From: a virus
Taxonomy: Duplodnaviria; Caudoviricetes
Strand: one strand, 5' to 3'
Length of the DNA stretch: 60,023 nucleotides
IMG/VR virus record: IMGVR_UViG_3300025280_000036
Location: 1 to 60,023 of that record
Part shown: one piece after another, positions 1 through 59,798 of the stretch
Layout: every line of letters begins with the position of its first letter
How positions within the stretch are numbered: the stretch's first letter is position 1
Position numbers and translations under genes: made by a program
The notes under the pieces: generated by a model
The model's input: the letters and a program-made list of their open reading frames with translations, nothing else
The model's database searches: none
What the model was told of the DNA's origin: nothing

Positions 1-133
1 TGAACCTTTTCCTTTCTTCACGATTATAATCAGCCATAGCATTGTCGAAGTTAATGCTTTTGTATCCCCTGAACGAACCGTCCGGGTTCTTCACTTCTTC
101 CATATCGTCAAAATTTTCTATTCTCGGTTTCAT
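1..133 (-). CDS. Hypothetical protein, N-terminal part (truncated by window edge), same as 57719-58072
   Basis: MKPRIENFDDMEEVKNPDGSF... is identical to the right-end ORF; GGAGG RBS upstream. Confidence 0.85.
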   Translation of the reverse strand, partial: MKPRIENFDDMEEVKNPDGSFRGYKSINFDNAMADYNREERKRF

Positions 134-153
134 GTCATGTCCTCCTAGTCGTT

Positions 154-243
154 CTAGTCGTTGAAATAAGTGATTGCTAAGGGAAGCAACACCACGCCCA
201 TTACAAAAAATGGTTCGGCAAAAAAATTCATAAAATCAATCAT
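154..243 (-). CDS. 29-aa single-TM micropeptide MIDFMNFFAEPFFVMGVVLLPLAITYFND
   Basis: GAGGACTAAACC-ATG start; the homolog at 58492-58590 differs mainly by synonymous changes. Confidence 0.8.
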   Translation of the reverse strand: MIDFMNFFAEPFFVMGVVLLPLAITYFND

Positions 244-246
244 GGT

Positions 247-909
247 TTAGTCCTCAGTAAGATCATGGCCCATAGCTATCAATGTTGGCCGAAAAAACCC
301 ATTGTTAAAGCGTGACATTTCATCTACCGTAGCTCCTGAAGCAATCGCTTCTGCTACTTTTTTCTTTTTTTCCTCAAAAGCCCGCTCGTGTGTCAATTCT
401 TGCACCCATTCCATCCACGTTCGCTCCTCAGAATAGCGCCATTGAATGTGGTTGCCCGAGGCTTTTTTTCTGCCGCCCCCGTCAAGGTGAATCCATCCGC
501 CTCGCAGAATCCCGGTGAATTCTTGCTGGCCCATCTTCGTTGGTCGGCGGCGCGATCCACCCCAAATCGTGAAGTGACCGCTTACCTTTCGACCTTCCTC
601 TGCCTTGGGCTTGCACTTAGCTGCGCCGCGGCGCTCATCACGTTCCGCCTCGGTCAGATCGTCCCAGCGTTCGACAAGGTATTCAACGTCGTAAAATTTG
701 ACCTCGTTGAACCAAGTGCCGCCAGAATGATGCCATTCAAACGACGGCCAGAAACCACTCTTGGCAAGGTACATCGCAAGCGTTCGTGTCTCCTTCCAGC
801 CACCTTCGCGCAGTAACTCGACGGTCCAGCGTGATAACGGGCGCACCCCATTGCTGTAGGCATCAATGGCGTTGTTGCTCATCCCAAAATCTAAGTCATA
901 GCCAGCCAT
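247..909 (-). CDS. Hypothetical early protein with a C-terminal 40-aa segment shared with virion protein 36430-38538
   Basis: GAGGAC RBS before ATG 909 (MAGYDLDFGMSNNA...); possible internal in-frame start at 414 with GAGGAG RBS. Confidence 0.8.
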   Translation of the reverse strand: MAGYDLDFGMSNNAIDAYSNGVRPLSRWTVELLREGGWKETRTLAMYLAKSGFWPSFEWHHSGGTWFNEVKFYDVEYLVERWDDLTEAERDERRGAAKCKPKAEEGRKVSGHFTIWGGSRRRPTKMGQQEFTGILRGGWIHLDGGGRKKASGNHIQWRYSEERTWMEWVQELTHERAFEEKKKKVAEAIASGATVDEMSRFNNGFFRPTLIAMGHDLTED

Positions 910-911
910 GT

Positions 912-1181
912 TTAGTCCTCTGAGTCGATTTGTAAATGGAGTTCGCCGTTGAAAAAAATAAACTTCGTGATCCATTTCGATTTTTCATGGTCAACAATTC
1001 TGTAGCCATTCTCGTCCTTTTTAAGCCGTCCATTTTTGTGCTTCTTGTACACATATTCTCGTTCCTGATACTCAAGCGATGACTCAGTGATCAGGTCTGA
1101 ATCTACAGTCATGCTGTACTTTGTCTGCACAAAATCCGCGACTGCCTCGATGACTTCGTAAGTTGATAAGCTAATTCTCAT
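912..1181 (-). CDS. Hypothetical early protein
   Basis: GAGGAC RBS, ATG 1181, directly 3' of the hammerhead cleavage site. Confidence 0.75.
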   Translation of the reverse strand: MRISLSTYEVIEAVADFVQTKYSMTVDSDLITESSLEYQEREYVYKKHKNGRLKKDENGYRIVDHEKSKWITKFIFFNGELHLQIDSED

Positions 1182-1202
1182 TTCATTTGTCCTCGTTTGG
1201 TT

Positions 1203-1267
1203 TTCCAAGACCGCTGACCTCTCCAGCGGTTTCGACTGATAACCAATCAGTTACTCGTCAGTTGGAA
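1203..1267 (-). ncRNA. Type I hammerhead ribozyme
   Basis: Minus strand: UUCCAA-CUGACGA-G(UA)ACUGAU-UGGUU-AUCAGU-C-GAAA-CCGCUG-GAGAGGU-CAGCGG-UC-UUGGAA. Canonical core, three stems, GUC cleavage triplet. Confidence 0.92.
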
Positions 1268-1421
1268 TTAAAAAATCTTGCTTATCAACCATTGCTTTGC
1301 ATCCAAGGCAAGTTATAGCGCCCCAAGCAAAGTGATAAACAATTGCATGATGCTCACAAATCGGGCACTGGATTGCTTTTCCGTTAGCCCCAGCCCGCGT
1401 GTATCTATCAACCTTTTTCAT
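1251..1421 (-). CDS. Small zinc-ribbon protein (56 aa)
   Basis: MKKVDRYTRAGANGKAIQCPIC...CLGC...FLIPTDE; GAGGAG RBS; homolog at 59631-59798. Confidence 0.8.
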   Translation of the reverse strand: MKKVDRYTRAGANGKAIQCPICEHHAIVYHFAWGAITCLGCKAMVDKQDFLIPTDE

Positions 1422-1466
1422 CACTTTCTCCTCTTGCCCTCTTGGTTTAGCCCTTAATGAAAAACA

Positions 1467-1495
1467 ATCCTATACGAAACAATTGAACATTGCAA
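1467..1495 (-). promoter_or_regulatory. Sigma70-like early promoter
   Basis: TTGCAA-17 nt-TAGGAT; identical in the right-end copy. Confidence 0.6.
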
Positions 1496-1513
1496 CCTGG
1501 TGCAACAAAAGTG

Positions 1514-3499
1514 CTAGCTGCAATACTTTGCGTAGCACACCGGTCCGATCCCGCGTTCAATCGATTCCTCATTCTCAAGATGGGTGTTGCAGAATCCGCA
1601 TGTGCCGACCAAGCGCCCATAAGCGGCAGCGGCAGCGACGTGATCCTCTACGATGGTTTGCAGTGCCTCACCGATCTGACCGCAATAGAGGCCACCGGGT
1701 CGCTGGTTGCCATATCGGTTTTGGTCCCCGTAGATGGCGCAGTCGGTCACAAACGACCAACCCGAATACTTGCCATCATCGACGTGCCGGATATAAACCT
1801 TCAGCCGTGTGTCACCACCCGGCACGGCGTAACGCCCTGAAGGTATCTGCCGCAGGTCGATCTCACGCACCTCGTCCTTAGCCTCGACGTTGAACGCTTC
1901 AGCCAGTTCCTCGATGGTTGGTGTACGGCTCACCGTTTGCGGCTGTGACACGGCCTCTGGGGACGGTTGAACGTAGGTGTCGAGCACGGTGTCAGTGATG
2001 CTCTGTTTACTCACCACCAATTCGATGACGCGAGCATCGAGCGAGTGATCGATCACGATGTGCTGACACAAAACGCTGTCACGCTGCCCAATTCGACAAA
2101 GTCTATCTTCGGCTTGATTCAGGCTTCCGCTGACCCAATCCAATTCTGCGAACACGCAAATGCTGGCTCGGATTAGGGTCAACCCAACACCCGCGGCTCC
2201 TATGGTACCGATGAACACGTCGGCTTTGCCGGATTGAAAATCGTCCACTGCGGCTTGCCGGTGATCCTGCGAATGCCCGCCATGAAGCGTCACCACGCTG
2301 CGCGAGTCCTCCAAGCCCTTCTCAATAGCTTCAACCACGTCATGGTGGTGGGCGAAAACCACCACAGGCTCATCGATTGCCAAAAGGTGATCGACAACCG
2401 CTGGCACCTTTGCCAGCGCGGTGGCGTGGCGGACCCTTGAGATTTCCTCAAACCTGACGCGATCACCCTTGCTGATCTCCAGCAAAGCATCACCCATCGT
2501 GGCAAACGACGCCTCATCGGCCAGCACATCGTCGTAGCCATCCGAAGGCAGCACGATCACTTGCCGACGTTTCGCTGGCAGGTCGGGCAGCACCGCTGAT
2601 TTTTCACGGCGAAGCATGATGGTTGAACGCAGCCGCTCGCGCAATTCATCAAGATTCGATGACCCGTCAAAATCCCAACCAAAATTATTTTTGTGGGCGT
2701 TGGCGTAACGCTTCGCAAAACCCATAAAATTGCCAAATTCTTTCTGATCTAAATATCCGGCAACGGGTTGGATTTCAATGGGCCTATTCGGTATCGGTGT
2801 CCCGGTTAAGGCGTAGCGTCGTTTCGCCTTGATTTTCAGCGCCACCTTGGTGCGGGCCGCTCGGTTGTTTTTTAGGAAATGAGACTCGTCAAACACCACA
2901 CAGCCCCACGTCCGCGACAACAGCGCCGATTTATGTTTGTTCAATACATCGTAGTTGATAATCACTATGTCTGGGTCAGCGGGGAACGGTGTTTTGCCGC
3001 CGTTCACCACGGCTATACAACGCGGTTCGGCCAGCCATTTTTCAGTCTCGCGCAGCCAGTTTATTTTAAGGCTGGACTTGCAGACGATCAAAACGGTCTT
3101 GGGCCGCTCAAGATTCAGCAATCCCAAAATTTGGATCGTCTTGCCAAGACCCATCGGATCGGCCAGCAAGACCGATTCATGCTCCGCCAGAAACTTGATC
3201 CCGGCGAGTTGGTAAGGGAAGTATCTCAAGCCGTCAGGCACCGGCACGTCGAACCCTGCGGGCGCTGTGATCGCTTGCGAATCGGCAATGATCGAGGCAT
3301 CGATTTTTTTATCGTTCCACTTGCTGATCTGCCATTCATCTTTGAATTTTCCGACCGAGTAACCGGCGGCCTTGATCGCCTGTTTTTCAGCGCGCCAGAA
3401 TGCCCAAAAGTCATCGGCATTTTCCGGCAGCGGTGACGATGAAACGGTGCGACCGTCGCCAATCGTTTTTGGTTCGGAAAATTTTAGTTTGAGTTTCAT
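1514..3499 (-). CDS. SNF2-family (HARP/SMARCAL1-like) helicase with C-terminal Zn-finger domain
   Basis: LADPMGLGKT, FDESH, LTGTPIPN, GVGLTL, QAEDRLCRIGQ; C-terminal CGFC...GIGPVC (DUF6011-like). Confidence 0.92.
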   Translation of the reverse strand: MKLKLKFSEPKTIGDGRTVSSSPLPENADDFWAFWRAEKQAIKAAGYSVGKFKDEWQISKWNDKKIDASIIADSQAITAPAGFDVPVPDGLRYFPYQLAGIKFLAEHESVLLADPMGLGKTIQILGLLNLERPKTVLIVCKSSLKINWLRETEKWLAEPRCIAVVNGGKTPFPADPDIVIINYDVLNKHKSALLSRTWGCVVFDESHFLKNNRAARTKVALKIKAKRRYALTGTPIPNRPIEIQPVAGYLDQKEFGNFMGFAKRYANAHKNNFGWDFDGSSNLDELRERLRSTIMLRREKSAVLPDLPAKRRQVIVLPSDGYDDVLADEASFATMGDALLEISKGDRVRFEEISRVRHATALAKVPAVVDHLLAIDEPVVVFAHHHDVVEAIEKGLEDSRSVVTLHGGHSQDHRQAAVDDFQSGKADVFIGTIGAAGVGLTLIRASICVFAELDWVSGSLNQAEDRLCRIGQRDSVLCQHIVIDHSLDARVIELVVSKQSITDTVLDTYVQPSPEAVSQPQTVSRTPTIEELAEAFNVEAKDEVREIDLRQIPSGRYAVPGGDTRLKVYIRHVDDGKYSGWSFVTDCAIYGDQNRYGNQRPGGLYCGQIGEALQTIVEDHVAAAAAYGRLVGTCGFCNTHLENEESIERGIGPVCYAKYCS

Positions 3500-3572
3500 A
3501 ATTTTGTCCTCTGGTTTCACCCAAAAACCCCAGACTGGCCGGGGTTAATAGGGGTGAATATGTCAACGTCGG

Positions 3573-3857
3573 TTAATTCTGCATATGCTGGTTTTTGATC
3601 AGGTTTTTAAGCACCCGAACGTCTTTTTTCACTCCGTCCACCTCGACCCGCAATTGATAGTAGGTATTTTTCCGGCTTTGCGTCATAGCCTGAGAAACGG
3701 AGACATCATCGAACTGATAATGATTATCAAATTCTTGCCTGCGACGTTGCCCCAGATTCCCATTGTCGCCGCTCCACATATAACAGCCCTTGTGCTTTTC
3801 GTGCGTCAGCAAGATATTCTCAATCTCACCAATTTGATCCTTTGTTAAGCTAGTCAT
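3573..3857 (-). CDS. Hypothetical early protein
   Basis: GGGGA RBS, ATG 3857 (MTSLTKDQ...), bounded by hairpin repeats. Confidence 0.7.
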   Translation of the reverse strand: MTSLTKDQIGEIENILLTHEKHKGCYMWSGDNGNLGQRRRQEFDNHYQFDDVSVSQAMTQSRKNTYYQLRVEVDGVKKDVRVLKNLIKNQHMQN

Positions 3858-3955
3858 GTCATGTTTCCCCTGTGTTGGTTTGGTTGATCCTTGCACCCCA
3901 AAACCCCAGACAAGCCGGGGTAGTGGGGGGGGTGAATATGTCAACCAGTATTTTC

Positions 3956-4120
3956 TTATTGATGCTTCCAATGCTCAGGCCATTTGATGGCTGCGTTCAA
4001 GGCTTTCAAGTCGCTGATCTTTGTTCTGAAGAGCTTTTTACGCATCTTGTTAATTGCCTCGTCAGTCCAGCCCTGTTCTCTTCGTTTCATCGTGATCATA
4101 AAAATTAATTTTTCTTTCAT
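3956..4120 (-). CDS. Small hypothetical protein
   Basis: GAGGAC RBS, ATG 4120, downstream of promoter 4156-4184. Confidence 0.6.
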   Translation of the reverse strand: MKEKLIFMITMKRREQGWTDEAINKMRKKLFRTKISDLKALNAAIKWPEHWKHQ

Positions 4121-4730: not shown

Positions 4731-4821
4731 CTATTGGACCCCTTTTGGTTTAGGTTACAAAATCTTGCACCCAAAAAGCCCGCACCGGGCGGGCTTGGTG
4801 GGGTACGTTGTAGCGTATAGT

Positions 4822-5565: not shown

Positions 5566-5650
5566 GGTTTAGTCCTCTTAAAATGTGTCTATGGTTTCAC
5601 CCAAAAAGCCCGCACAGGCCGGGCTTGGTGGGGTACGTTTTTTTGCTCTT

Positions 5651-6226: not shown

Positions 6227-6312
6227 TGGTTTAATCCTCTTATGGTTTGGTTGATCCTTTCACCCAGAAAGCCCGGACGGGCCGGGCTTAGTGGGTGCGT
6301 TGTGGTGGGCGG

Positions 6313-16507: not shown

Positions 16508-17443
16508 ATGGCTATTTCAAGAGCACAGATGCTTAAAGAACTCCTGCCGGGGCTTAACGCCCTGTTCGGTCTGGAGTATGAAAAGTACGCTGACGAGCAC
16601 ACCGTTATTTATGATACGGAGTCCTCTGATCGTTCTTTCGAGGAAGAGGTGAAGTTGAGTGGGTTTGACGCTGCTCCGGTGAAGGACGAAGGGGCTGGGA
16701 TCACTTACGATTCAGCGCAGGAAGCCTTCACGGCACGGTATAACCACGAAACGATTGCGATGGGATTTGCGATCACCGAGGAAGCTATGGAGGACAACCT
16801 CTATGACAGCCTCAGTGCCCGTTACACCAAGGCACTCGCTCGGGCTATGTCGTACACGAAGCAGGTTAAAGCCGTTAATCCGCTTAACAACGGTTTCACC
16901 AACAGTTATCAGACGGGGGATGGAGTTAACTTCTTCACCGCGTCGGGTGACGGTGTAACCGGTGGCGGCGGGCACCCGCTCGTCAGCGGAGGCACGAACG
17001 ATAACCGTCCGGCAACGGCGGCTGATTTGAATGAAACCTCGTTGGAGGCAGGCATCGTCACGATTGCTGCTGTCACCGACGAGCGTGGACTTCTTATCGC
17101 AGCCCGTCCGAAACGGTTGTTGGTGCCACCGGCCTTGATGTTTACAGCTACGCGACTGCTTGAGTCAGATCAAAGAGTAGCGACGGCTGATAACGACATC
17201 AATGCGGTACGGAGTCTTGGGGCAGTACCTGAAGGGTATTCGGTCAATCATTATCTGACTGACTCGGATGCTTGGTTCATCGTTACCGATGTACCGAATG
17301 GTATGAAGCACTTTGAGCGTACCTCGCTGGAAACCTCGATGGACGGTGATTTCGATACGGGCAACGTGCGCTACAAGGCGCGTGAGCGTTATTCGTTCGG
17401 CGTTTCCGATCCACTGGGGATGTATGGATCACCGGGTGCATAA
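16508..17443 (+). CDS. Major capsid protein
   Basis: MAISRAQMLKELLPGLNALFGLEY...DFDTGNVRYKARERYSFG; strong RBS. Confidence 0.92.
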   Translation: MAISRAQMLKELLPGLNALFGLEYEKYADEHTVIYDTESSDRSFEEEVKLSGFDAAPVKDEGAGITYDSAQEAFTARYNHETIAMGFAITEEAMEDNLYDSLSARYTKALARAMSYTKQVKAVNPLNNGFTNSYQTGDGVNFFTASGDGVTGGGGHPLVSGGTNDNRPATAADLNETSLEAGIVTIAAVTDERGLLIAARPKRLLVPPALMFTATRLLESDQRVATADNDINAVRSLGAVPEGYSVNHYLTDSDAWFIVTDVPNGMKHFERTSLETSMDGDFDTGNVRYKARERYSFGVSDPLGMYGSPGA

Positions 17444-17459
17444 CTGACTCGGTATATGG

Positions 17460-17514
17460 GAGAGCGATGCTTACTTGACAGATGATATAGCTTGTAAGTA
17501 ATCGCTCTCTTTTT
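17460..17514 (+). terminator. Hairpin after the major capsid gene
   Basis: GAGAGCGAT...ATCGCTCTC followed by a T-run. Confidence 0.55.
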
Positions 17515-17564
17515 CCTGACTGTCGCAATAATGCGGCAGACACTAGCCACGACAGGAGAAAGAC

Positions 17565-18122
17565 ATGGCTAACACGACCTTTAACGGACCGGTTCGTTCC
17601 GAAGGTGGTTTTGAGCAAATCAGCAAAACTGCCGGAACGGGTGCCATTACCACCAATCTGGATATCGATACCAGCGGTAATATCACCACCACGGGGTACG
17701 TTTCCTCTTACGCGAATGTAAGCAGCATCACGTCTGCGACCAAGAGCGTTGAATCGACGGATTCGGGCACGGTTTACACCCTGAACAGGGCTGCGGGTAT
17801 TGTGGTGACACTGCCTACGGCGGCTGCGGGGATCAACTACACCTTCATCGTCGGCACCACCTTCACGGGTGCGGGTCAGATCAACACGGATAACGCCAGT
17901 GATTTGTTCTCTGGGTTTGCAACGATCTTTGACCCGGCAACGGCCACCGACAACAACACCTTCATTCCTGATGCCAGTGATGACGACACCATTGATTTGG
18001 GTACGGCAGCACAGGGTTGGCTGGTTGGTGGTGTGATTCGCTTGGTTGCCACCAGTGCGGCGGTATGGCATTGCGAAGCGTTCCTTCATGGTGACGGTAC
18101 GTTAGCAACACCGTTCGAGTAA
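17565..18122 (+). CDS. Virion structural protein
   Basis: MANTTFNGPVRSEGGF N-terminus; TLPTAAAGINYTF. Confidence 0.7.
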   Translation: MANTTFNGPVRSEGGFEQISKTAGTGAITTNLDIDTSGNITTTGYVSSYANVSSITSATKSVESTDSGTVYTLNRAAGIVVTLPTAAAGINYTFIVGTTFTGAGQINTDNASDLFSGFATIFDPATATDNNTFIPDASDDDTIDLGTAAQGWLVGGVIRLVATSAAVWHCEAFLHGDGTLATPFE

Positions 18123-22016: not shown

Positions 22017-22781
22017 GTGGCAAATATTACAGGTTGGGGCCGGAGTACATGGGGATCGCTCACTTGGGGTGAGCCGGTTCCTGTCGAACTTACCGGTCTT
22101 GCCGGTACGTCGGCGCTTGGTTCGGTTAGTGTCAGTGCTGCGGCGAATGTCGCTGTCACGGGCCTTGCAGGTACCGGCGCTGTCGGTACGTTGGTTGCCA
22201 CAGGTGTTGCCAATGTTGCGGTTACGGGGTTGGCAGGTACGGGCGCGGTTAGCTCACTTAGTATCGCTGCTGCGGCCAATGTTGCGGTCACGGGCCTTGC
22301 GGGCACGGGTGCTGTTGGCACGTTACTGGCAGCGGGCTATGCGATTACCGGCGTCAGCGGTACGGCATCTACGGTTGGGTTGGGCGATGAAACGGTTACC
22401 GGTGACGCGAATGTCTACCCGACAGGGGTGGCAGGCACTTCGGCGTTGGGCAGCATCACGCTCATCACCAATAACATCATCAGCCTTACTGATCTGGGAG
22501 CGGCTACAGGTAGCTTGGGGTCGGTTACGGCTTCTGGTGCTTCAGGTATTACGCTTGAAGGTTTGGCAGGAACCGGTGAAATCACGCAGGTTCTGGTATG
22601 GGGGCTTGTGGACACGGATCAGACCCCGAATTGGGGTGCAATTTCGACAACACAAACACCAAGCTGGTCTGCTGTTTCGACCACTCAAGATCCTTCTTGG
22701 TCATCGGTGTCCACGTCACAAACACCTAGCTGGAGTTCGGTAGACAGTGATCAGACTCCTGAATGGAAAAAGGTAGCTTAA
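22017..22781 (+). CDS. Repeat-rich tail/fibre protein
   Basis: ANVAVTGLAGTGAV repeats; C-terminal 11-aa QTPSW repeats. Confidence 0.75.
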   Translation: MANITGWGRSTWGSLTWGEPVPVELTGLAGTSALGSVSVSAAANVAVTGLAGTGAVGTLVATGVANVAVTGLAGTGAVSSLSIAAAANVAVTGLAGTGAVGTLLAAGYAITGVSGTASTVGLGDETVTGDANVYPTGVAGTSALGSITLITNNIISLTDLGAATGSLGSVTASGASGITLEGLAGTGEITQVLVWGLVDTDQTPNWGAISTTQTPSWSAVSTTQDPSWSSVSTSQTPSWSSVDSDQTPEWKKVA

Positions 22782-22782: not shown

Positions 22783-25700
22783 ATGGCAACTTATGTAAAC
22801 GATCTTAGATTAAAAGAAATCGCTACCGGCGATGAGTCAGGGACTTGGGGAGACAGCACCAACACCAACTTAGAGTTGATAGGCGAAGCCTTTGGTAGCG
22901 GTTCAGAAGGCATCACGGGAACGACGCACACGATCACGATAGCTGATGGAACGTCCGACGCGGCCCGAGCGATGGTCATGACTTTAACAGGGTCTACCAC
23001 TGCTCTTAACACCGTCACCCTCGCACCTAACACGGTGAATAAAGTCTGGGTTATCCAGAACTCGGCTGGTTACGCGGTTTCAATCAGCCAAGGCACGGGC
23101 GCTAATGTCGTGATCCCCAATGGCGGAATCAAGATGGTTGTGGCTGACGGTGCGGGCGCAGGCGCGGCGGTAACCGATGTGTTAGACCTCACGGGAGGTA
23201 CTGGAAACATTGGTTTAGGTAGTGGTTCTTTAGGCACGGCGTTAACGACCGGTACTGACAATGTAGCTATCGGTGAAGCGGCACTTGATGCAGCAACCAC
23301 GGGTTCCGACAACACCGCTGTGGGAGACAATGCCGGGGGCGCATTAACCACGGGCAGCAACAGCGTCGCTATTGGTTCTTCGGCTTTATTGGTAGCCACG
23401 ACCGCTGCCGATAACACGGCAGTCGGGACCGACACGCTTAAAGCCAATTCCACGGGAACCGATAACACGGCGGTGGGTTATGCAGCGGGTGATGCTGTAA
23501 CCACAGGATCGGATAATACTTTTGTCGGAGACAATGCCGGAGGGGCCGTTTCTACGGCTTCAGGCCATACGGCGGTGGGTTCTTCGGCATTGCTTACGAT
23601 GTCCACCGGTACAACCGGAACGGCGGTAGGCTTTGAGGCGCTCAAGGTAGCTACCGGGAATAACAACACAGCAGTTGGCTACCAAGCAGGTGTAGCCGTA
23701 AGCACTGCAGCTAATTGCACCATAATCGGTTCTGCAGCCGGGGATGCTTTGAGTACCGGGGCTAATAACACACTGGTTGGTAAAGACGCTGGAGGAGCCC
23801 TAACTACGGCTGCGGGCAATACGGCTATCGGGCAGGGCGCTTTAGTAACTTCAACCACGGGCCCAGAGCATGTTGCGATAGGTAAGGACGCTTTAAGTCT
23901 TATGGCGACCGGCGAGGCATGTGTAGCAGTCGGGAATGAGGCTTTGAAGGCGAATTTAGGCAGCAGCAATACTGCGGTTGGTTATCAAAGTATGGATGCC
24001 TGCACCACCGGAACGCAGTTGACGGCTGTTGGTCGGAATTCTTTAGGTGCTGTTACAACCGGATCAGGTCTTGTGGCTATGGGAATGTCTGCTTTGTCTA
24101 CGATAACCACCGGAACGAATGGAACGGCGGTAGGTTTTGAGGCACTGAAAGTTGCGACGGGTAATGACAATACAGCAGTAGGGTATCAGGCTGGGGTTGC
24201 GGTCAGTACAGGAACCGATAACACTCTATTTGGTAATGCCGCAGGCGATGCGAATACCACAGGTTCTGACAACACCTTCATAGGAGACAACGCAGGCGGA
24301 GCCAACACGACAGCAAGTAATAACACCGCTGTCGGGTCAAATGCTTTGCTTGCCAACACCACAGGTAATCATTTGGTCGCTGTTGGCGATGATTGTTTGG
24401 CATCGAACACGACCGGGGCCAGAAATACGGTAGTCGGCAGAAATGCAATGTATGCCAACACCACCGGAACCGGCAACACTGCGATAGGAAACAATGCATT
24501 AACCACAGCCACCGAAGCAGACGACAATGTTGCCATTGGCAGAAGTTCTTTAAATGCTCTTACCAGTGGAGTTGATAACACCGCAGTAGGTGCTTATTCA
24601 GGTGACGCTATAACCACCGGTAGCGACAACACCGCGATTGGTGACAATGCATTAGGTGCAGTAACAACTGGCAGCGATAACACGGCAGTAGGGTCATCTG
24701 CTTTATTGGCAAGTACGGGAGCAGGTAATACAGCGGTCGGGGCTTATGCCTTGGATGCCAACCAAGCCGATGATGTTACGGCTGTTGGTAAAAATGCCCT
24801 AACAGCCAATACGACAGGAACCAATAATGTCTCCGTGGGGGCTTATTCCGGGGAAGCTGTAACGACGGGGACTAATAATACTTTTATCGGAACGAAGGCT
24901 GGACGTGCTGTCACTACAGCATCAGGTCATACGGCAGTGGGTAATGCAGCATTGCTTACAATGACCACCGGAACGACAGGTACGGCGGTCGGCTTTGAAG
25001 CACTTAAAGTTGCGACGGGTAATGACAATACAGCAGTTGGCTATCAGGCTGGTGTGGCCATAACGACGGGAAATTACAATACCGCTTTAGGCCAAGGCGC
25101 TTTAAGTACAGCGACAACTGTAAATGCAAACACGGCTATTGGTAATGATGCGCTGAGAACGGCTGCCGGAGCATATAATACAGCGGTAGGTGCTTCTGCA
25201 GCGAATGCAATCACGACAGGAGCAAACAATGTTGCTATCGGCGCGAATGCGATGGATGCCGCGACCACCGGAGACTCAAATACGGCGGTTGGTTATCAGA
25301 GTTTGGACGCCAACACGACAGCCAGTAACAATACCGCTGTGGGTAAAGATTCTTTAGGAGCCGTAACGACCGGTACATCGAATGTTGGTCTAGGTCAGGC
25401 TACAGGACAAGCTTTAACAACCGGGGCTTATAACGTATTGATTGGCCAAGGTGTGAATGTTGATGGCTCGACTGCTGAAGGACAGATTGTCATTGGTCGA
25501 AATGTTGCGAGTGGCGGAAATGATAGTGTCCGGTTTGGGCAGGCTGGCAACACGCTGACTATAGCTTTGAACGGTTCAACAACGTCTTGGACGGCGGCTT
25601 CGGACGAACGGTTGAAAGAGAATATTGAACCTGCTGCGGCAGGGTTATCTTTTATCAACGATTTGCGGCCAGTTACATACAACTTCAGAAAGGCCAAGGA

Positions 25701-25968
25701 TGTGCCATCGGATTTTCCCGGTTATCAAGAAGGTTCTGATGAGCCATGTCTTGGACATGATTACGGGACAGTCAATCACGGGTTTGTCGCTCAAGAAGTT
25801 AAAGCAGTGATTGATAATCACCCGGAAGTAAAAGAAGGCTTTGATATGTGGAATACTGCGAGCGATGGGGTACAGCACATCGGAGATGGGGCTTTAGTTC
25901 CGATGTTGGTTAAAGCGGTTCAGGAGCTTTCAGCAAAGATTAAGAAACTTGAAGAGGAGGATGAATGA
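22783..25968 (+). CDS. Tail fibre with YadA-like 14-residue beta-roll repeats and a C-terminal S74 intramolecular chaperone
   Basis: Dozens of NTAVGxxAL...TTG repeats; SDERLKENI...LRPVTYNF...GFVAQEV...LVKAVQEL. Confidence 0.9.
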   Translation: MATYVNDLRLKEIATGDESGTWGDSTNTNLELIGEAFGSGSEGITGTTHTITIADGTSDAARAMVMTLTGSTTALNTVTLAPNTVNKVWVIQNSAGYAVSISQGTGANVVIPNGGIKMVVADGAGAGAAVTDVLDLTGGTGNIGLGSGSLGTALTTGTDNVAIGEAALDAATTGSDNTAVGDNAGGALTTGSNSVAIGSSALLVATTAADNTAVGTDTLKANSTGTDNTAVGYAAGDAVTTGSDNTFVGDNAGGAVSTASGHTAVGSSALLTMSTGTTGTAVGFEALKVATGNNNTAVGYQAGVAVSTAANCTIIGSAAGDALSTGANNTLVGKDAGGALTTAAGNTAIGQGALVTSTTGPEHVAIGKDALSLMATGEACVAVGNEALKANLGSSNTAVGYQSMDACTTGTQLTAVGRNSLGAVTTGSGLVAMGMSALSTITTGTNGTAVGFEALKVATGNDNTAVGYQAGVAVSTGTDNTLFGNAAGDANTTGSDNTFIGDNAGGANTTASNNTAVGSNALLANTTGNHLVAVGDDCLASNTTGARNTVVGRNAMYANTTGTGNTAIGNNALTTATEADDNVAIGRSSLNALTSGVDNTAVGAYSGDAITTGSDNTAIGDNALGAVTTGSDNTAVGSSALLASTGAGNTAVGAYALDANQADDVTAVGKNALTANTTGTNNVSVGAYSGEAVTTGTNNTFIGTKAGRAVTTASGHTAVGNAALLTMTTGTTGTAVGFEALKVATGNDNTAVGYQAGVAITTGNYNTALGQGALSTATTVNANTAIGNDALRTAAGAYNTAVGASAANAITTGANNVAIGANAMDAATTGDSNTAVGYQSLDANTTASNNTAVGKDSLGAVTTGTSNVGLGQATGQALTTGAYNVLIGQGVNVDGSTAEGQIVIGRNVASGGNDSVRFGQAGNTLTIALNGSTTSWTAASDERLKENIEPAAAGLSFINDLRPVTYNFRKAKDVPSDFPGYQEGSDEPCLGHDYGTVNHGFVAQEVKAVIDNHPEVKEGFDMWNTASDGVQHIGDGALVPMLVKAVQELSAKIKKLEEEDE

Positions 25969-28460: not shown

Positions 28461-29738
28461 ATGGGTAAGGGTAGCGGTAGTGGTGGTGGCAGACGGCCTG
28501 CTCCCCCCCGAGGTTTTCCCGGTAGACCAGGCAAGGGTAGTGGTGGGCAGCCGCGAACGAATCAGTGGTCACCCGGCCCCATGCCGGGATCGTCTTATAA
28601 CCAGCCCCAGCTTCCCGGTGGTTATGGGCGGATGCGGTATGAGCCACAGCAATTCAGTAGTTACGGCGTTCCAACCAGCATAGCCCAGCCGGGTGTTTTC
28701 GGTTGGGGTGAGTCAGTTTCAGGATTGGAGACTCCCGGCTCAAGGCGGCAATACGGCGGTGAAACATTTACTCAGGGAGCCGGGGGCCGTCAATGGACTG
28801 ACAGGTATGGGCGTGGCTGGGGAACAGACCCAATGCAACGGCAGCAGCAACAGTTTGGTGGAGGACCGGGCAAAGGTGGCAGAGGGCAGCCTTCTCCCCA
28901 GCAATTCCCCGGAGGACCGGGTAAGGGTGGTGGTGGATATGGGCAGGCACAGCAGTTAGGGCAGCAATTACAGCCAGCACAATTACAGCCAGCAGGAGCA
29001 GCATCACCTTATTTTCAGGACATCATGGGTCGAGCGGCATATGAGCCTCAGGGGCAGGCACAGCAGTTAGGGCAGTTACAGCAGCAATTAGCAGGGCAGC
29101 AGCAAGCATTAGGAGCCGGACTTGGTGGTGGGGTTGGGATGTATGGAGGGATGCAAGATGAGGCGGCAGCAGAACCAGCGCGGTTTGCAGCATCTCCATC
29201 GAAAAATGGAATTGTTGGCATAGGTGATTTCGAGCAGAAGCAGATAGTTGCGCCGAAAGATCAAGCTGTCGGTATAGGTGATTTTGAACAGAAGCAGATA
29301 GCTGACCAACCCTCTGTAACACCACAGAAGTGGACTCCAGAGGAGAAAGCAGCTTGGGCACAACGGGAGCAAGCTCCAGCCCCGGCTCCGGTCATACCTC
29401 AAAAATGGACGCCAGAACAAAAGGCTACTTGGGGTGGATGGTCACCAGAGCAGCAACAGTTGGCTCAAGGGAACACGGCTCTATGGACGCCACAGCAACA
29501 GAGTGCTTGGGGCGCAGGTCAGCCGTTACCCGGATGGTCACAAGCACAGCAAAGTGCTTGGGGCGCAGGTCAGCCGTTGACCGGATGGACACCACAACAA
29601 CAGAGAGATTGGCGCGCAGGAACGAAGCCATTGTCCGAGGTGCGATGGACTCCAGCACAGCAGGCAGCTTGGAGGGCAGCGCGAAGGGCTAATGGGGGGA
29701 TAGTTGGACTTTACTGGCCCGGAGGGCGGGTGCATTAA
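28461..29738 (+). CDS. Low-complexity G/Q/P/W repeat protein
   Basis: GPGKGG, VGIGDFEQKQI x2, about 9 W(T/S)PxQ repeats, terminal ANGGIV. Confidence 0.7.
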   Translation: MGKGSGSGGGRRPAPPRGFPGRPGKGSGGQPRTNQWSPGPMPGSSYNQPQLPGGYGRMRYEPQQFSSYGVPTSIAQPGVFGWGESVSGLETPGSRRQYGGETFTQGAGGRQWTDRYGRGWGTDPMQRQQQQFGGGPGKGGRGQPSPQQFPGGPGKGGGGYGQAQQLGQQLQPAQLQPAGAASPYFQDIMGRAAYEPQGQAQQLGQLQQQLAGQQQALGAGLGGGVGMYGGMQDEAAAEPARFAASPSKNGIVGIGDFEQKQIVAPKDQAVGIGDFEQKQIADQPSVTPQKWTPEEKAAWAQREQAPAPAPVIPQKWTPEQKATWGGWSPEQQQLAQGNTALWTPQQQSAWGAGQPLPGWSQAQQSAWGAGQPLTGWTPQQQRDWRAGTKPLSEVRWTPAQQAAWRAARRANGGIVGLYWPGGRVH

Positions 29739-31594: not shown

Positions 31595-31791
31595 TGGCAT
31601 CGCTTAGAACTAACCCTTTGCCGTCGCCCAGCGAGGAATATGACAGCGAGAACGAGCAGACAATGCGTAGAACCGTGGAGTTTGCGTTGCAGAATATAGA
31701 GAACGATGTGTTGTTAGCCAAGACTCAGGCCGATAAGGATGGTTCCTTGGCGATGCGACGGTTTCAGTTCTTGTTGATGGGAGCCTCGTGA
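31594..31791 (+). CDS. Hypothetical protein
   Basis: Coupled ORF. Confidence 0.65.
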   Translation: MASLRTNPLPSPSEEYDSENEQTMRRTVEFALQNIENDVLLAKTQADKDGSLAMRRFQFLLMGAS

Positions 31792-32117
31792 GTGACATCA
31801 TTAAAGTCCTCGGTCAGTTGGATTGTGCGGCTACAACGCAGGAGACTCTGTATACGGTCCCAGACCTCACCCAGACCACGGTTAGTTCGTTTCTCGCCTG
31901 CAACCGGACAGGAAGCGCGATTACATTCAGACTTCGGATAAATGTTGCCGGGGCTGGGGACAATGACAAACAGTTTCTTTATTATGATAAGTCTGTTGCA
32001 GCAAACACGACATTTACAGCGGTTATTGGTATGTGTTTAGGACAGGCAGATGTGGTTAAGACTTATGCGAGTGCTGTAGATATGACTTTTACTTTATTTG
32101 GTGTTGAGACTAAATAG
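31788..32117 (+). CDS. Virion protein
   Basis: TLYTVP...CNR...beta-rich. Confidence 0.65.
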   Translation: MSDIIKVLGQLDCAATTQETLYTVPDLTQTTVSSFLACNRTGSAITFRLRINVAGAGDNDKQFLYYDKSVAANTTFTAVIGMCLGQADVVKTYASAVDMTFTLFGVETK

Positions 32118-34725: not shown

Positions 34726-36430
34726 AGGCGGCGGCGGTCCACCTCCTACACAGGAGATGACAACTCAAACAAGTCGAATTCCTGAATTCGCTGAACCTTA
34801 TTTTCAGGAGATGATGGGTCGGGCGGCGTATGAAACGACGCGGCCTTATCAAGCGTATCCGGGGGAAAGACTCGCGGATTTCACCGCAGCGGAACGCGCC
34901 GGTCAGGCGGGCATGGCCGAAATGGCGGCTGCTGGGGCACCTCCAGAGATGGGCATGGCTTCGGATATTGCATCGCAAGTCGGTTATGGGCCGCAGATGT
35001 CGGCAATGCAGGTTGCCCAAGGGTTTCAGCCGCAGCAGGTTCGATCCGGTTACATGGCGGCGGATATTGATCCCGGTTATACCGCAGGTCAGTTGGGTCA
35101 GGGCTATCAGGCCGGTCAGCGGGACATGGGCTATCAGGCCGGTCAGTTTGACCCCGGTTATGCAGCCCGTGAACTAGGTCAGGACTATACCGCCAGAGAA
35201 TTAGAGGCGCAGTACACCGGGACAGGCGCACCTGCTGGGGCGCAGTTTGGTCCGGGGTTTGATCCCCGTTCCGTAACTGATGAAGGTGTTATTGAGCGGT
35301 ACATGGACCCGTTTCAGCGATTGGTAACCGATATTGAAAAGCGGGAGGCGCAGCGTCAATCGGATATTCAAGCGTCTGGTACGGCACAGCAGGCGGCACA
35401 GGCCGGGGGTTTGGGTGGCTACCGGGAGGCCATCATGCAGGCCGAACGCGAGCGCAATCTTGCGCAACAGATGGGTGATATCGAAGCGCGTGGAGGACAG
35501 GCGGCCTTTCAACAGGCCCAGCAAGCCTTTGAGGCGGACAGGGCTGCGAGATTGCAGGCCGGTCAATTAGGCTTGCAGACAGGTCAAGCAAGGGAGCAGG
35601 CTCTGCAACAGGCAGAGCAAATGCGCCAAGCAGCGTTTGGCACGTCCGAGGCGGCTCGTCAAGCACAGCAGCAGATGCAAACGGCGGCTTATCAGGCCGG
35701 GGAGCAGGCGAGACAGCAAGCCGGAGCGATGGGGCTTACCTCTCAACAGCAAGAAGATGCTGCTCGTCAGGCGGAGGAACAGTTTGGTCAGGCGCAATTT
35801 GCTCAGAATGAGCAGATGCGACAAGCCGAACAACAGGCCAATCAGGCTGCATATCAGGCTCAAGAGGAAGCGAGGCGGGAGGCTGGCCGACTCGGGTTAT
35901 CGGCGCAGGAGATTCAGGAGCGGGGCCGTCAGGCTGCCAATCAGGCGTATATGGAAGCCCAGCGGTTTAACGTGGAGCAGGGTTACAGGCAGGCTCAGTT
36001 GGGCATGGCCGGTTTGGGCGAGGATCGTGCAGTTCGGCAGCAGCGGTTGGAGGCGGCTCAACAGTTGGGCCAGTTTGGCGGCCAGCAGCAGCGTATGGCG
36101 TATGAGCGAATCCGTAATTTGCAGGCAATGGGTCAGGGGCAGCGTGAATTGGCCCAGCGTGGTTTGGATATTGGTTATCAGGATTTCCTGCGACAACGTG
36201 GGTATCCGCGAGAACAGTTGAGTTATTTGAGTAACCTGATTCAAGGGTTGCCATTAGCCCCAATGGGGCAACAAACACAAACCACGTATGGTGGCCCAAC
36301 CGGGATACAGCAAGCATTAGGTGCTGGGCTGGGTGGGGTAGGTTTGTATAACCAATTTCGTGGCGCTGGTGGTGGCCGCATTCCGGGGGTTACAGGTATT
36401 GGTTTGCATAGAGCGTTGAGGGCGGCCTGA
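34718..36430 (+). CDS. Ejection / DNA-transfer protein
   Basis: Q/A-rich coiled coil, YMDPF...V, DFLRQRGYP, Gly-rich C-terminus. Confidence 0.7.
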   Translation: MGKGGGGPPPTQEMTTQTSRIPEFAEPYFQEMMGRAAYETTRPYQAYPGERLADFTAAERAGQAGMAEMAAAGAPPEMGMASDIASQVGYGPQMSAMQVAQGFQPQQVRSGYMAADIDPGYTAGQLGQGYQAGQRDMGYQAGQFDPGYAARELGQDYTARELEAQYTGTGAPAGAQFGPGFDPRSVTDEGVIERYMDPFQRLVTDIEKREAQRQSDIQASGTAQQAAQAGGLGGYREAIMQAERERNLAQQMGDIEARGGQAAFQQAQQAFEADRAARLQAGQLGLQTGQAREQALQQAEQMRQAAFGTSEAARQAQQQMQTAAYQAGEQARQQAGAMGLTSQQQEDAARQAEEQFGQAQFAQNEQMRQAEQQANQAAYQAQEEARREAGRLGLSAQEIQERGRQAANQAYMEAQRFNVEQGYRQAQLGMAGLGEDRAVRQQRLEAAQQLGQFGGQQQRMAYERIRNLQAMGQGQRELAQRGLDIGYQDFLRQRGYPREQLSYLSNLIQGLPLAPMGQQTQTTYGGPTGIQQALGAGLGGVGLYNQFRGAGGGRIPGVTGIGLHRALRAA

Positions 36431-38538
36431 TGAATATTTTACAACAGGAAGATATGGTCAAGGGTCTTCCTGATGAAGCATTGATGCAGGAAGCGGAACA
36501 ACCCAGCGGGCAATTACCTCAATACCTGTTGATTTCCGAGGTTCAGCGCAGGGCTGATATGCGTAAACGGTATCAACAGCAAATGCAGGAAGCAGAGCCG
36601 ACCGTGGCCGAGCAGGTTTTACAGGAAGGCATTGCTGGTTTAGCTCCGCCACCTGAGCCAATGCAACAAGCCATGAATGGCGGTCAACCGCCAATGCAAC
36701 CGCCAATGAATGGTGCTCCTCAACAGATGCCTCCGGGAATGCCTCTACAGATGAATGGCGCTCCTCAACAGATGCCTCCGGGGATGAATGGCGGTTTTCC
36801 ACCACAATTTGAGACTCAAATGGCCTATCAGGGTGGTGTTGTAAGGATGAATGAAGGTAGTACGGTGGAACCTCCAAGGATGCTCCCGCTGATGAATGAA
36901 GAGGAAAAAAAGAAAAAAATAGCAGAAGCGATTGCTTTAGGAGCTACGGTAGAGCAAATAGGAAGTTTAAGCAGAGGCGCTTTTCGACCAACATTGATAG
37001 CTATGGGCTATGATCTTACTCCTGATGATTCTATTTCGGCAGGTGAGATGGCATCAATAGATGCTGCTCGTGATAATTTAGTTACAGAAATGCCTCCACA
37101 AATTGGGGCAGTTGCTGAGATTGGTCAATCGAATCAGTACGAGCCGGGACCTTACGCTAAAACTCAAAAAGAATTTTTAGAAAGATGGGAGAGCCGCCCC
37201 GGAGCGCCAACACCGAGAGAAATTGATTTGGGTGAGATTCCTCTGGATTGGCTGTCCAGAGGGGGAAGAGGGTCTTACGCTTCGCTAGGGTCTATGTTTG
37301 ATCCCAGTAGAGTAAAAGGATTGATTGCAACTGCGGAAGCTGCGGTCGATCCATCATTTGTTGTTGCGGCGGAGCAGCCAAAAATTGGAGGTAACTTGGT
37401 AGATACGGAGGGCAAACCAAAGGGTGCGATAATTGAAGATGCGCTTTCACTAATTGATACGTCTAGTTTTCCTAAACGCAGGGGGAAGCCTGAAACACTT
37501 TCTTCGGAATTTACGCAATTAAAGGGTGCTTCAGAAGAGTCAATTTCATTGGATGAACAAAGAGCAAATATAGCCAAGCAAAATGCGTTGCGGGATGAAA
37601 TGTTGAAGGAGGAAGCTGCTGGGGAAAATGGAGCGCCTGTATTGACTGAAAATGATATTGCACAACTTATATCAGGTAACCCTGATTCTCAAGATATGAC
37701 TCTTTTAGCACCTGAGATTCTTGCTGCGCAAGAAGAAGATCGGCAGCAGAATGCCGCCAATGTTGCCATTGCAAATAAGAGGAAAATGGCTGCCGCTAAA
37801 GCTGATGAGGATAAAGAAATTTCTCGGAGCAGTTTATTGAAAGCGTTAGGAGCATTAAAAAATAGAAAATCATCGATAGTGGATTATTCAGAATTGATAA
37901 AAAGTGGTGATGAACAAGCAAGGCAAGATGCTTTTTCTCAGATGCTGGTTAACCTTGGGGCTGGCATTGCTGCCGGTGATATGGCTCAGGGGTTAAGGGA
38001 CGCCGGAGAAGCTGTTGCAAAGACCAGAGGTAAGCAACGCGAATTGAGACAAGCTATGGAATTGGCGCAATTAAAGGGTGCTTCAGAGGCTGAAAAAGCT
38101 GACTTGGCGATGGAGCTTAGTATTATTGAAGCCCAATTAGGGGGGCTTCCTCCAGCAGCAGCCGCGATAACGCCATCTGAATTACAAAAAACATTGGCAG
38201 ATATGAATATTTTGAAGTCTCGGAATGAGGAAAATACGGATCATTATAAATACTTGGAGTCCAGAGTCGCCACTTTAACTAATCCTTCGGTGCAAAATGT
38301 TGTGGGTCCGGTTTTAATTAAAATGAAAGAGGTAGGTATGGATGGTCTCGATAAGGGTGAAAAAGATATTGTCAATAAATATTTTTCGGCTAATGATCTT
38401 GAACTAATATTAGAAACTCTTAGGAATCAGCCAAGAGAGGATGAAAGCGATGGCGGATTGCTTGCTGGCCTTGCACCCGCGCAGGCAAGCGGTGGCTTAG
38501 TGAAAGCGGCTGACGGGGTTTATCGGAGTGCGGGTTAA
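36430..38538 (+). CDS. Ejection protein
   Basis: Conserved-looking N-terminus, MNG-P repeats, position in the ejection block. Confidence 0.65.
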   Translation: MNILQQEDMVKGLPDEALMQEAEQPSGQLPQYLLISEVQRRADMRKRYQQQMQEAEPTVAEQVLQEGIAGLAPPPEPMQQAMNGGQPPMQPPMNGAPQQMPPGMPLQMNGAPQQMPPGMNGGFPPQFETQMAYQGGVVRMNEGSTVEPPRMLPLMNEEEKKKKIAEAIALGATVEQIGSLSRGAFRPTLIAMGYDLTPDDSISAGEMASIDAARDNLVTEMPPQIGAVAEIGQSNQYEPGPYAKTQKEFLERWESRPGAPTPREIDLGEIPLDWLSRGGRGSYASLGSMFDPSRVKGLIATAEAAVDPSFVVAAEQPKIGGNLVDTEGKPKGAIIEDALSLIDTSSFPKRRGKPETLSSEFTQLKGASEESISLDEQRANIAKQNALRDEMLKEEAAGENGAPVLTENDIAQLISGNPDSQDMTLLAPEILAAQEEDRQQNAANVAIANKRKMAAAKADEDKEISRSSLLKALGALKNRKSSIVDYSELIKSGDEQARQDAFSQMLVNLGAGIAAGDMAQGLRDAGEAVAKTRGKQRELRQAMELAQLKGASEAEKADLAMELSIIEAQLGGLPPAAAAITPSELQKTLADMNILKSRNEENTDHYKYLESRVATLTNPSVQNVVGPVLIKMKEVGMDGLDKGEKDIVNKYFSANDLELILETLRNQPREDESDGGLLAGLAPAQASGGLVKAADGVYRSAG

Positions 38539-58482: not shown

Positions 58483-58491
58483 GTCATACCC

Positions 58492-58590: not shown

Positions 58591-58602
58591 GGTTTATAGT
58601 CC

Positions 58603-58935
58603 TCAATAATTAAAACACGCTCGTACTTCGCCAAAGTCCACGATGCACAGGTCAGTACGAGGTTGACCTTTACGCAACTGCGCTGATCCGATTTCGATAA
58701 GGGCTTTGATCGCATCTGGTGGCGTCTGAGCATCCAGCCGACGGAGATGGGCACGAGGATATTGAACATACTTTCTCGTCACCCCTCCTTCTCTCCACTT
58801 CTGTCGGCTTGTCTGGAAATCCTCAATCGTGTCTCGCGTAAAGACCAGATCATCGACAGTTACATCAAAAGCGCCGAAGTAGTGTTTAAAGACTGCTTCA
58901 ATCTGTTCATCGGATAGTGGGATATTGTTTCTCAT
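58603..58935 (-). CDS. Hypothetical protein
   Basis: GAGGAC RBS; paralog of 56792-57301. Confidence 0.7.
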   Translation of the reverse strand: MRNNIPLSDEQIEAVFKHYFGAFDVTVDDLVFTRDTIEDFQTSRQKWREGGVTRKYVQYPRAHLRRLDAQTPPDAIKALIEIGSAQLRKGQPRTDLCIVDFGEVRACFNY

Positions 58936-58941
58936 GTTGGT

Positions 58942-59331
58942 TTAGTCCTCATAATGCCAATTGTTGCCGTAATTACCGCCTTCCAAACAGTCTCGCTCCA
59001 CCAGTATCCATCTAGTACGTACGTGCCATTTATGATGAAACACACCTAGCTTTCGCAATTGCCACGATGTCTCTTTTAGAGTTTCCCATCGTTTATTAGG
59101 CCCGAAGTAGTCAATGTCATCTAAAGCAGAACCAATGTCCCATTCAAGGCTGGCTTTCAAAAACGCGGCAACGAATTGCATGTGCCGTTTTTGAACAGGT
59201 AAAGCACTATTTTTATCTCCCATTGCACCGGCTGAACAGTCGCCATCCACAGCAAGTAAACAGTATTCATGCCAGTTGGCTCTTGTCAGCGTTGGTAGGA
59301 AAATTTCCGTGATCTGGTTTGTGTTTTTCAT
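58942..59331 (-). CDS. Hypothetical protein
   Basis: Ends in the GAGGACTAA junction. Confidence 0.6.
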   Translation of the reverse strand: MKNTNQITEIFLPTLTRANWHEYCLLAVDGDCSAGAMGDKNSALPVQKRHMQFVAAFLKASLEWDIGSALDDIDYFGPNKRWETLKETSWQLRKLGVFHHKWHVRTRWILVERDCLEGGNYGNNWHYED

Positions 59332-59346
59332 GTCACTATCAATTCG

Positions 59347-59553
59347 TTATTCGTTATCAAGATACGCGGCTAAATCCGGAACGATGTGGATCGCCAATCC
59401 AGCAAACCCAACAACGCGGCTGAAACAGGCTTTGTCGCTGACCCATCCTTTGTACTCGTCTATGTATATTTCAATCTGGAAATTTCCAAACGTAAAAACG
59501 AACGGCCCACGCCACGATTTTTCTTTGTGTTCAAATTTACGGTAGCGGTTCAT
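59347..59553 (-). CDS. Hypothetical protein
   Basis: AGGAG RBS just downstream of the hammerhead. Confidence 0.55.
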   Translation of the reverse strand: MNRYRKFEHKEKSWRGPFVFTFGNFQIEIYIDEYKGWVSDKACFSRVVGFAGLAIHIVPDLAAYLDNE

Positions 59554-59579: not shown

Positions 59580-59644
59580 TTCCAAGACCGCTGACCTCGG
59601 CAACGGTTTCGGCTGGTAACCAACCAGCACTCATTCAGTTGGAA
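59580..59644 (-). ncRNA. Type I hammerhead ribozyme, variant core (CUGAAUGA)
   Basis: UUCCAA-CUGAAUGA-G(U)GCUGGU-UGGUU-ACCAGC-C-GAAA-CCGUUG...CAGCGG-UC-UUGGAA; compensatory changes relative to 1203-1267. Confidence 0.85.
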
Positions 59645-59798
59645 TTAAAAAATCTTGCTTATAGACATCTGCCTTGCATCCTTGGCATTTTGTGGCGTAC
59701 CACCGAAAGTGATACACGATTGAGTGGTACCCACAATGCGGGCACTGGATTGCTTTCCCGTCAGCCCCAGCCCGCGTGTCTCTATCAACCTTTTTCAT
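59631..59798 (-). CDS. Small zinc-ribbon protein (allele B)
   Basis: CPHC...CQGC; homolog of 1251-1421. Confidence 0.8.
   Translation of the reverse strand: MKKVDRDTRAGADGKAIQCPHCGYHSIVYHFRWYATKCQGCKADVYKQDFLIPTE

Follow-up and report, generated by a model that had tools for sequence, protein, structure and literature searches.

A structurally complete type I hammerhead ribozyme (copy 1; 1203..1267, minus strand), with a pseudoknot between its loop II and the tail that follows stem I, is confirmed by sequence analysis in a marine phage genome, at the edge of a variable gene cassette. We favor the reading, with a probability of roughly 0.65, that this ribozyme is active and cuts the message of the accessory cassette from the message of the SNF2 helicase and Zn-ribbon genes upstream.

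The window, meaning the whole stretch of DNA analyzed, comprises all 60,023 bases of a record from viral metagenomes that is classed as linear and 100% complete. Its gene products include a terminase, a portal, a Mu-type major head protein and an internal virion protein, and on the side of DNA metabolism a primase/helicase, an exonuclease, an SNF2 helicase and a DNA methyltransferase. No match was found by blastn between positions 1-4000 and 50,697 deposited phage records. The stretch around the ribozyme is contained in 20 runs, all from marine/seawater samples and all of DNA (RNA 0/20). A scan of 185,579 species genomes returned just 9 hits, all in MAGs, and since these are spread over mixed phyla no host was inferred. 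The record also contains a Mu-gpT-DE RNA motif (RF03012; 65.1 bits, cut-off 49) at 17514-17567 on the plus strand, directly after the major head gene (16508-17443) and ending in the ATG of the ORF 17565-18122. In-frame repeat families are found within the large plus-strand structural ORFs, with units of 66 nt (22143-22451), of 96 nt and longer in the 1061-aa ORF 22783-25968 (23248-25375), three tandem units of 51 nt (29483-29635) and units of 45 nt (36655-36777).

The record overlaps itself at its ends (period about 58.4 kb), the copies being diverged, with blocks of 78-99% identity: 1-158 matches 57940-58095 (97%), 128-260 matches 58477-58609 (80%), and 1183-1645 matches 59562-60023 (88%). 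Between these blocks no similarity was found, and the two ends carry unrelated gene cassettes. Most likely, as far as can be judged from these overlaps, the assembly went once around a genome that is circular or terminally redundant, then continued into a second strain variant, which would place two alleles of the locus (variants A and B) within one record.

The consensus core of hammerheads consists of CUGANGA, GAAA and a U-H cleavage dinucleotide, in that order. Copy 1 has every conserved core base, and all base pairs are canonical in it. Read on the minus strand, an open stem I of 6 bp (1267-1262 with 1208-1203) leads to the 5' core CUGACGA (1261-1255) and to stem II (1254-1234), in which a closing G-C (1254/1234) is followed by a 2-nt bulge and by 6 bp (1251-1246 with 1240-1235) capped by loop II, UGGUU (1245-1241). 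The GAAA (1233-1230) is followed by stem III, of 7 bp (1230-1224 with 1216-1210), and by the cleavage triplet GUC (1211-1209), with the predicted cut after C1209. The tail AACCA (1198..1202), 3' of stem I, forms 5 bp with loop II. The full type I core at 1267..1203, the pairing of loop II with this tail and the cut between 1209 and 1208 had been proposed in the first-pass annotation; hand reading bears out all three, the cut remaining a prediction.

The bare core pattern is not informative by itself, with 15 matches in the window against 13.7 expected, which is not beyond chance. With a covariance model built only from family members outside the window, copy 1 scores 66.2 bits (E 2.3e-15), whereas 14.1 bits is the best score of any unrelated match in the window. 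The Rfam hammerhead model RF00163 gives 20.9 bits, below its gathering score of 34. At gathering thresholds, the Rfam search of the window reports the Mu-gpT-DE motif and no hammerhead, and no hammerhead is listed in a permissive Rfam scan of the whole window either. RF00163 shares with copy 1 the core and the open stem I and aligns over model positions 1-45 at 1267..1203, but stems II and III of copy 1 are much longer (insertions of 19 and 17 nt) and the model has no pseudoknot. RF03152 (RAGATH-1) gives a weak full-length alignment that covers the core and stem III and scores 26.3 bits, where the gathering score is 56.3; its 5' accessory hairpin is not convincingly present in copy 1, which we do not consider a member. 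The nearest-neighbor minimum free energy structure of copy 1 differs from the hammerhead fold (-22.7 vs -17.1 kcal/mol), and the fold of the 86-nt segment has a modest advantage over shuffled sequences (z = -1.81).

The search of the window with the covariance model indicates one ribozyme per genome copy, so any processing would be limited to a single junction. Two other candidates were rejected. One is a weak match at 31704-31825 on the minus strand (13-14 bits), with an extra-base core and no stem II hairpin, antisense to structural genes. The other is a pattern match at 57589-57629 that lacks stem II and scores 8.6 bits over model positions 9-54 of 72.

The same hammerhead build was found in at least 120 viral contigs (at least 137 sites). 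The search pattern fixed the core and one stem I sequence (four stem I pairs), so these positions are uninformative about covariation. In the alignment of 112 non-identical sites and the two window copies (114 rows), 85.3% of the cells pair, vs 25-41% when the 3' partner is slid, and 407 cells are changed on both sides, vs 141 in shuffles; the covariation score was reached by 0 of 500 shuffles. Changes on both sides occur at all 6 distal pairs of stem II and at all 5 pseudoknot pairs; at the pseudoknot columns 34/101, for example, 37 rows have G-C, 26 have A-U and 6 have G-U. A duplex between loop II and the tail with at least 4 Watson-Crick pairs is possible in 67 of 112 members, vs about 25 of 112 with shuffled partners. 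The closing G-C of stem II is kept in 113 of 114 rows, and the basal A-U and C-G pairs of stem III in all 114, which the search pattern had partly fixed. Such strong covariation indicates selection on the RNA fold and not merely on a patch of DNA. The family is a large set of hammerheads from marine and other phages, with a predicted active fold held by the loop II/tail pseudoknot.

Some members of the family are arranged in arrays within 4-5 kb, where they separate small genes (6 hammerheads in contig L010, 7 each in L025 and L046). In two others (L094:6150-6221 and L035:5007-5083), the second core base is changed from U to C, giving CCGA for CUGA, with helices and pseudoknot intact; these are possibly inactive copies or copies with altered specificity.

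The other end of the window, with which the first-pass annotation had compared this one, has a diverged ribozyme of its own, copy 2 (59580..59644, minus strand), which scores 60.9 bits (E 5.9e-14) with the non-window covariance model and is predicted to be cut between 59586 and 59585. Relative to copy 1, two A-U pairs of stem II are replaced by G-C, as compensatory changes, and one G-C of stem III is replaced by G-U. All pairs are canonical in copy 2 as well, and its tail AACCC allows 4 pseudoknot pairs. The core of copy 2 reads CUGAAUGA, one base beyond the consensus. This extra-base core is rare, with 3 viral contigs found once the extra base is put into the otherwise unchanged search pattern, vs at least 120 with the canonical core. 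The four variants (copy 2, L090, L124 and L125) keep helices and pseudoknot with differing sequences, and the allele was further found in contigs of two more samples and in contig L136. In copy 2, the inserted base and the next two core bases build the UGA stop (59633-59631) of the Zn-ribbon ORF of variant B (59631..59798, minus strand; 55 aa), and the extra base also builds a stop in the ORF frame in L136.

A natural insertion after A6 (A6a), associated with low activity, has been described (PMC3088659). Copy 2, L090, L124, L125 and L136 resemble it, since they read CUGA-A-UGA with the extra base between CUGA and GA. The inserted base lies in or beside a run of A, and sequence does not decide whether the position is the same; copy 2 differs from A6a in that its insertion also makes the stop of the upstream ORF, and the insertion recurs here with intact, co-varying helices. 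A core insertion of this reported low-activity kind (PMC3088659) counts against the active-ribozyme reading as far as copy 2 is concerned.

Downstream of copy 1, cassette A contains two genes on the minus strand, of 89 aa (912..1181) and of 220 aa from the ATG at 909 (250..909), neither with a Pfam or PHROG family; the first has a 57% identical relative in the unrelated contig L094. Cassette B, downstream of copy 2, has three genes (68, 129 and 110 aa; 58603..59553, minus strand), also with no Pfam or PHROG family, and its ATG (59553-59551) is 32 nt after the predicted cut of copy 2. Cassettes A and B are not related to each other, the best blastp match between them having E 4.9e-4 over 28 aa. 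The variable block is bounded on the far side by a conserved hydrophobic mini-ORF of 29 aa (154..243, minus strand), which matches 58516-58596 (89%) and is found in L136 too. The ribozyme marks the edge of the variable cassette, as had been claimed, in that the strain variants stop being alike there. The edge is less sharp than a homology stopping right after the ribozyme: the similarity includes the ribozyme and the pseudoknot tail, fades past about 1197, with a gapped BLAST block that reaches 1183, and is back at the mini-ORF.

Other features of this block were observed. An inverted repeat of 120 nt (85%) joins 256-375 and 36901-37020. The 3' end of the second cassette A gene shares a coding module with the 702-aa ORF 36430-38538, and this module, in a stretch of about 180 nt (255-435), is absent from L136 and from an X20 contig that joins 254 to 436. 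Variant B has an extra gene of 137 aa (58096-58476), absent from variant A and bounded by a repeat of about 30 nt (128-158 matches both sides), at a junction with no ribozyme.

We compared contigs from four other studies with window positions 1-2400. Among the 24 loose ends listed, of 57, seven fall at or in the ribozyme (1190, 1194, 1195, 1199, 1210, 1245 and 1258). In one X18 contig, cassette A is attached to another stem III, matching that of the second L035 hammerhead. In L035 one gene lies between two hammerheads, and the same gene is found just upstream of one hammerhead in L116. Contig L136 represents a third haplotype, in which an ORF of the copy 1 type is joined to a ribozyme of the copy 2 type across a stretch identical in both; after the ribozyme there is a new gene of 61 aa and then the first cassette A gene. 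In one X20 contig the Zn-ribbon ORF continues to 1258 and is followed directly by an RBS and a start with no ribozyme, which indicates that some relatives can dispense with the ribozyme at this junction. A string of 20 nt from the ORF end and ribozyme start is also found in two metagenome contigs (L138 and L140) after an unrelated upstream gene, followed by an RBS and a start, with no ribozyme. Matches of 20-mers in L135, L142 and L137 were discarded as chance-like, being AT-rich and lacking both a ribozyme and flank homology.

These breaks raise the possibility that the element works mainly at the DNA level, either as a shared patch of ribozyme and tail for recombination of cassettes or by travelling with fast-turnover genes, RNA cleavage being secondary. 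To look at this beyond the locus, 100 contigs in 76 clusters were compared, requiring a homologous flank and remaining sequence and scoring whether homology crosses the junction. Homology fails to cross in 79 of 90 hammerhead junction-partner pairs (88%), vs 410 of 733 pairs (56%) elsewhere; at least one break was found at 47 of 51 hammerhead junctions, vs 214 of 360 other gene junctions. Cruder counts agree, with 4.8-5.2 ends of homology blocks per kb at hammerheads vs 1.3-1.9 at gene boundaries. Several caveats apply: the contigs of this test were chosen for carrying a hammerhead, genes were called heuristically, the pairs are non-independent, and a conserved island by itself tends to make BLAST blocks end at its own edge. 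A first version of the test, with crude ORF calls, was dropped since it recognized only 23 hammerhead junctions. The excess fits recombination at the ribozyme as well as an association of the ribozyme with accessory genes of fast turnover.

The proposal of a recombination anchor has real though non-exclusive support from the contig breaks, the recombinant L136 and the mosaic excess, but the locus also breaks at neighboring gene boundaries that have no ribozyme (146, 249/256, 910/912, 1422 and 1510), and L136 has genes inserted or missing at three further boundaries, so ordinary gene-boundary mosaicism explains much. The inserted gene of L136 is flanked by a tail/RBS motif and not by two ribozymes, and only this motif precedes the cassette A gene; the tail/RBS/start motif has a single occurrence in the window and is therefore not a general junction signal. 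The covariation also speaks against a patch of DNA alone, since it marks selection on the RNA fold. We see a mainly DNA-level role as possible but somewhat unlikely, and it is compatible with an active ribozyme rather than exclusive of it. More tentatively, and with a rather low probability, the ribozyme, tail and RBS may form a portable junction module that on RNA insulates cassette expression from its upstream context and on DNA is the patch where marine phages swap cassettes and ribozyme alleles, the extra-base core being a selected compromise. If so, the extra-base core would embed the upstream stop and slow cleavage, and cutting would depend on the clearance of ribosomes.

The ribozyme lies on the same strand as all neighboring genes. 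Upstream of it is a Zn-ribbon ORF of 56 aa (1251..1421, minus strand), with weak zinc-ribbon Pfam matches and similarity to phrog_5602 (E 1.2e-5), and then an SNF2-family helicase with a DUF6011 tail (1514..3520, minus strand; Pfam SNF2-rel_dom 1.4e-36, Helicase_C and DUF6011; phrog_62), which is the conserved side of the junction. The proteins of the Zn-ribbon ORFs at the two record ends (56 and 55 aa) have 42 identical residues. The only relative found in a scan with the Zn-ribbon protein, in L123, has no ribozyme after it. The order of SNF2 gene and hammerhead is kept in L027, L059 and L112, with homologs about 50% identical: in L027 and L112 the SNF2 homolog is followed by a single unrelated gene, then by a hammerhead that has the same tail, then by small genes, which in L112 include a relative of a cassette B gene; L059 contains part of this arrangement. 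In a simple scan, no terminator-like or sigma-70-like site was reported between the end of the SNF2 gene (1514) and the cassette. Among the small leftward genes that precede the SNF2 gene, the intergenic spaces contain a 45-nt repeat in five copies (3515-3559, 3891-3935, 4765-4809, 5595-5639 and 6258-6302), each with a GC-rich hairpin followed by a T run on the minus strand. Two of them were called terminator-like (4790..4778 and 5620..5607), and a weak sixth copy (60%) is found at 47243. The neighboring genes are of replication type, and the label of early mRNA given in the first-pass annotation could not be established.

The last codons of the Zn-ribbon ORF coincide with the 5' strand of stem I and the core; the UAA that ends it (1253-1251) is at the stem II bulge. 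Reading of the minus strand agrees with the T-D-E-stop previously described for this end; in variant B the ORF ends in T-E-stop. Downstream, a Shine-Dalgarno-like GAGG (1191..1194, minus strand) fits the RBS placed earlier at about 14 nt from the predicted new 5' end, and the in-frame ATG of the next gene (1181-1179) is 27 nt after the predicted cut. We analyzed this context across the family by a simple open-frame heuristic at 116 non-identical listed sites. The upstream stop is predicted inside the ribozyme in 70 of 116 sites: on the 5' strand of stem I in 31, inside the core in 30, all of them being the UGA of CUGA, and deeper in 9. In another 31 sites the stop precedes stem I, 10 show read-through and 5 have no upstream frame of at least 40 codons. 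An RBS-like motif and a start within 120 nt downstream were found in 109 of 116 sites, with the start at a median of 32 nt after the cut (10th-90th percentiles 22-53), compared with 27 and 32 in the window copies; a few of the start calls are spurious UUG codons inside stem I. Both the stop overlap and the short leader belong to the ordinary build of the family and are therefore not special to this locus.

The overlap invites the idea of a translational switch, in which a ribosome on the upstream ORF keeps the ribozyme unfolded, so that cleavage, and with it the expression of the downstream genes, would report upstream translation. The argument rests on the ribosome footprint. In both copies the ORF extends over the 5' strand of stem I and the core into the beginning of stem II, the internal stops are frequent, every one of the 30 core stops is the same UGA, and in copy 2 as in L136 the extra-base core supplies an in-frame stop for the ORF. 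In addition, one engineered insulator that failed in vivo contained a translated ORF (PMC7536230). Against the switch, the 31 sites with a stop before stem I and the 31 with an overlap of stem I only mean that there is no fixed stop register. Many overlaps are expected from tight packing, because the core holds a UGA in one of its three frames, and since cleavage is irreversible, ribosome traffic could only delay cutting. Tight packing accounts for the stop-codon overlap no less well than a switch would, and the first-pass idea that termination on the core gates folding finds no specific support, internal stops being the norm of the family; we regard such gating as improbable. That the element is an inactive relic or a chance look-alike, kept only as a coding tail and spacer, is very improbable: the scores below Rfam thresholds, the chance frequency of the bare core, the core insertion of copy 2 and the U-to-C relatives in L094 and L035 could be read in this way, but copy 1 has all the conserved core bases and an E-value of 2.3e-15 with an independent model, compensatory changes keep the helices and the pseudoknot between the copies and across the family, and even the extra-base variants retain them.

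Under the favored reading of an active ribozyme, we infer co-transcription of a leftward operon that comprises the SNF2 helicase, the Zn-ribbon gene, the ribozyme and the accessory genes. Once made and free of ribosomes, the 70-nt unit would cut itself after C1209. The upstream piece would end in the stem II and III hairpins with a 2',3'-cyclic phosphate, and the Zn-ribbon ORF would stay intact because its stop is 42 nt ahead of the cut. The downstream piece would start with a 5'-OH and have a fixed leader of 27 nt, with the RBS 14 nt from its end. RNAs with 5'-OH ends evade 5'-monophosphate-dependent decay. By analogy with engineered systems, the message of the accessory cassette would likely be uncoupled from its upstream context, with altered stability and a standard leader. 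In the DNA of the phage population, the element sits on a mosaic junction where differing downstream cassettes, and even differing ribozyme alleles, are joined.

Pseudoknotted phage hammerheads beside variable genes have been in print since 2011 (PMC3088659). According to Perreault et al. 2011 (PMC3088659), the hammerheads of phages and prophages flank genes of varying identity and were proposed to cut long phage transcripts into messages of gene length, which is also the processing of a polycistronic mRNA that the first-pass annotation had put forward; three of them, tested in A. tumefaciens, cleave in vivo, and pseudoknots are needed for fast cleavage. The element described here is similar to theirs in its canonical core, in a pseudoknot between the sides of stems I and II that replaces loop-loop contacts, and in its placement between small phage genes of varying identity (PMC3088659). 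It differs from the clusters of that study in having one ribozyme per genome copy, and would not be counted among them; furthermore, copy 1 is of type I with a pseudoknot made by the 3' tail and an ORF that reaches 5 codons in, and canonical and extra-base alleles are present in one population. In the main text of that paper, the terms "stop codon" and "open reading frame" have 0 occurrences (PMC3088659). A literature search at the level of titles and abstracts found no paper treating hammerheads as phage recombination junctions.

Engineered hammerhead insulators standardize the 5' UTR and raise stability, with an in-vivo cleavage efficiency of 0.84-0.94 for most parts (PMC7536230). The natural element is placed like RiboJ, just upstream of an RBS, where cleavage would leave the same kind of short leader with a 5'-OH. 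RiboJ is synthetic and combines another hammerhead with an added hairpin of 23 nt (PMC7536230); we claim no sequence kinship between them, and the natural element, unlike RiboJ, overlaps a coding region.

The curated type I model of Rfam misses the window copy of an abundant viral subfamily, and since a pattern restricted to a single stem I sequence already finds at least 120 viral contigs, phage annotations probably under-report such hammerheads. To what is already published, the locus adds a natural allelic series (canonical core, extra-base core and no ribozyme) on exchangeable cassettes within one marine phage population, as well as a hint, in numbers, of unusual mosaicism at hammerhead junctions. 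For the biological role of bacterial and phage hammerheads, the locus offers a compact natural test set: at least three haplotypes join ribozyme alleles to different cassettes, so that cleavage rate, expression and recombination could be compared without designed mutants.
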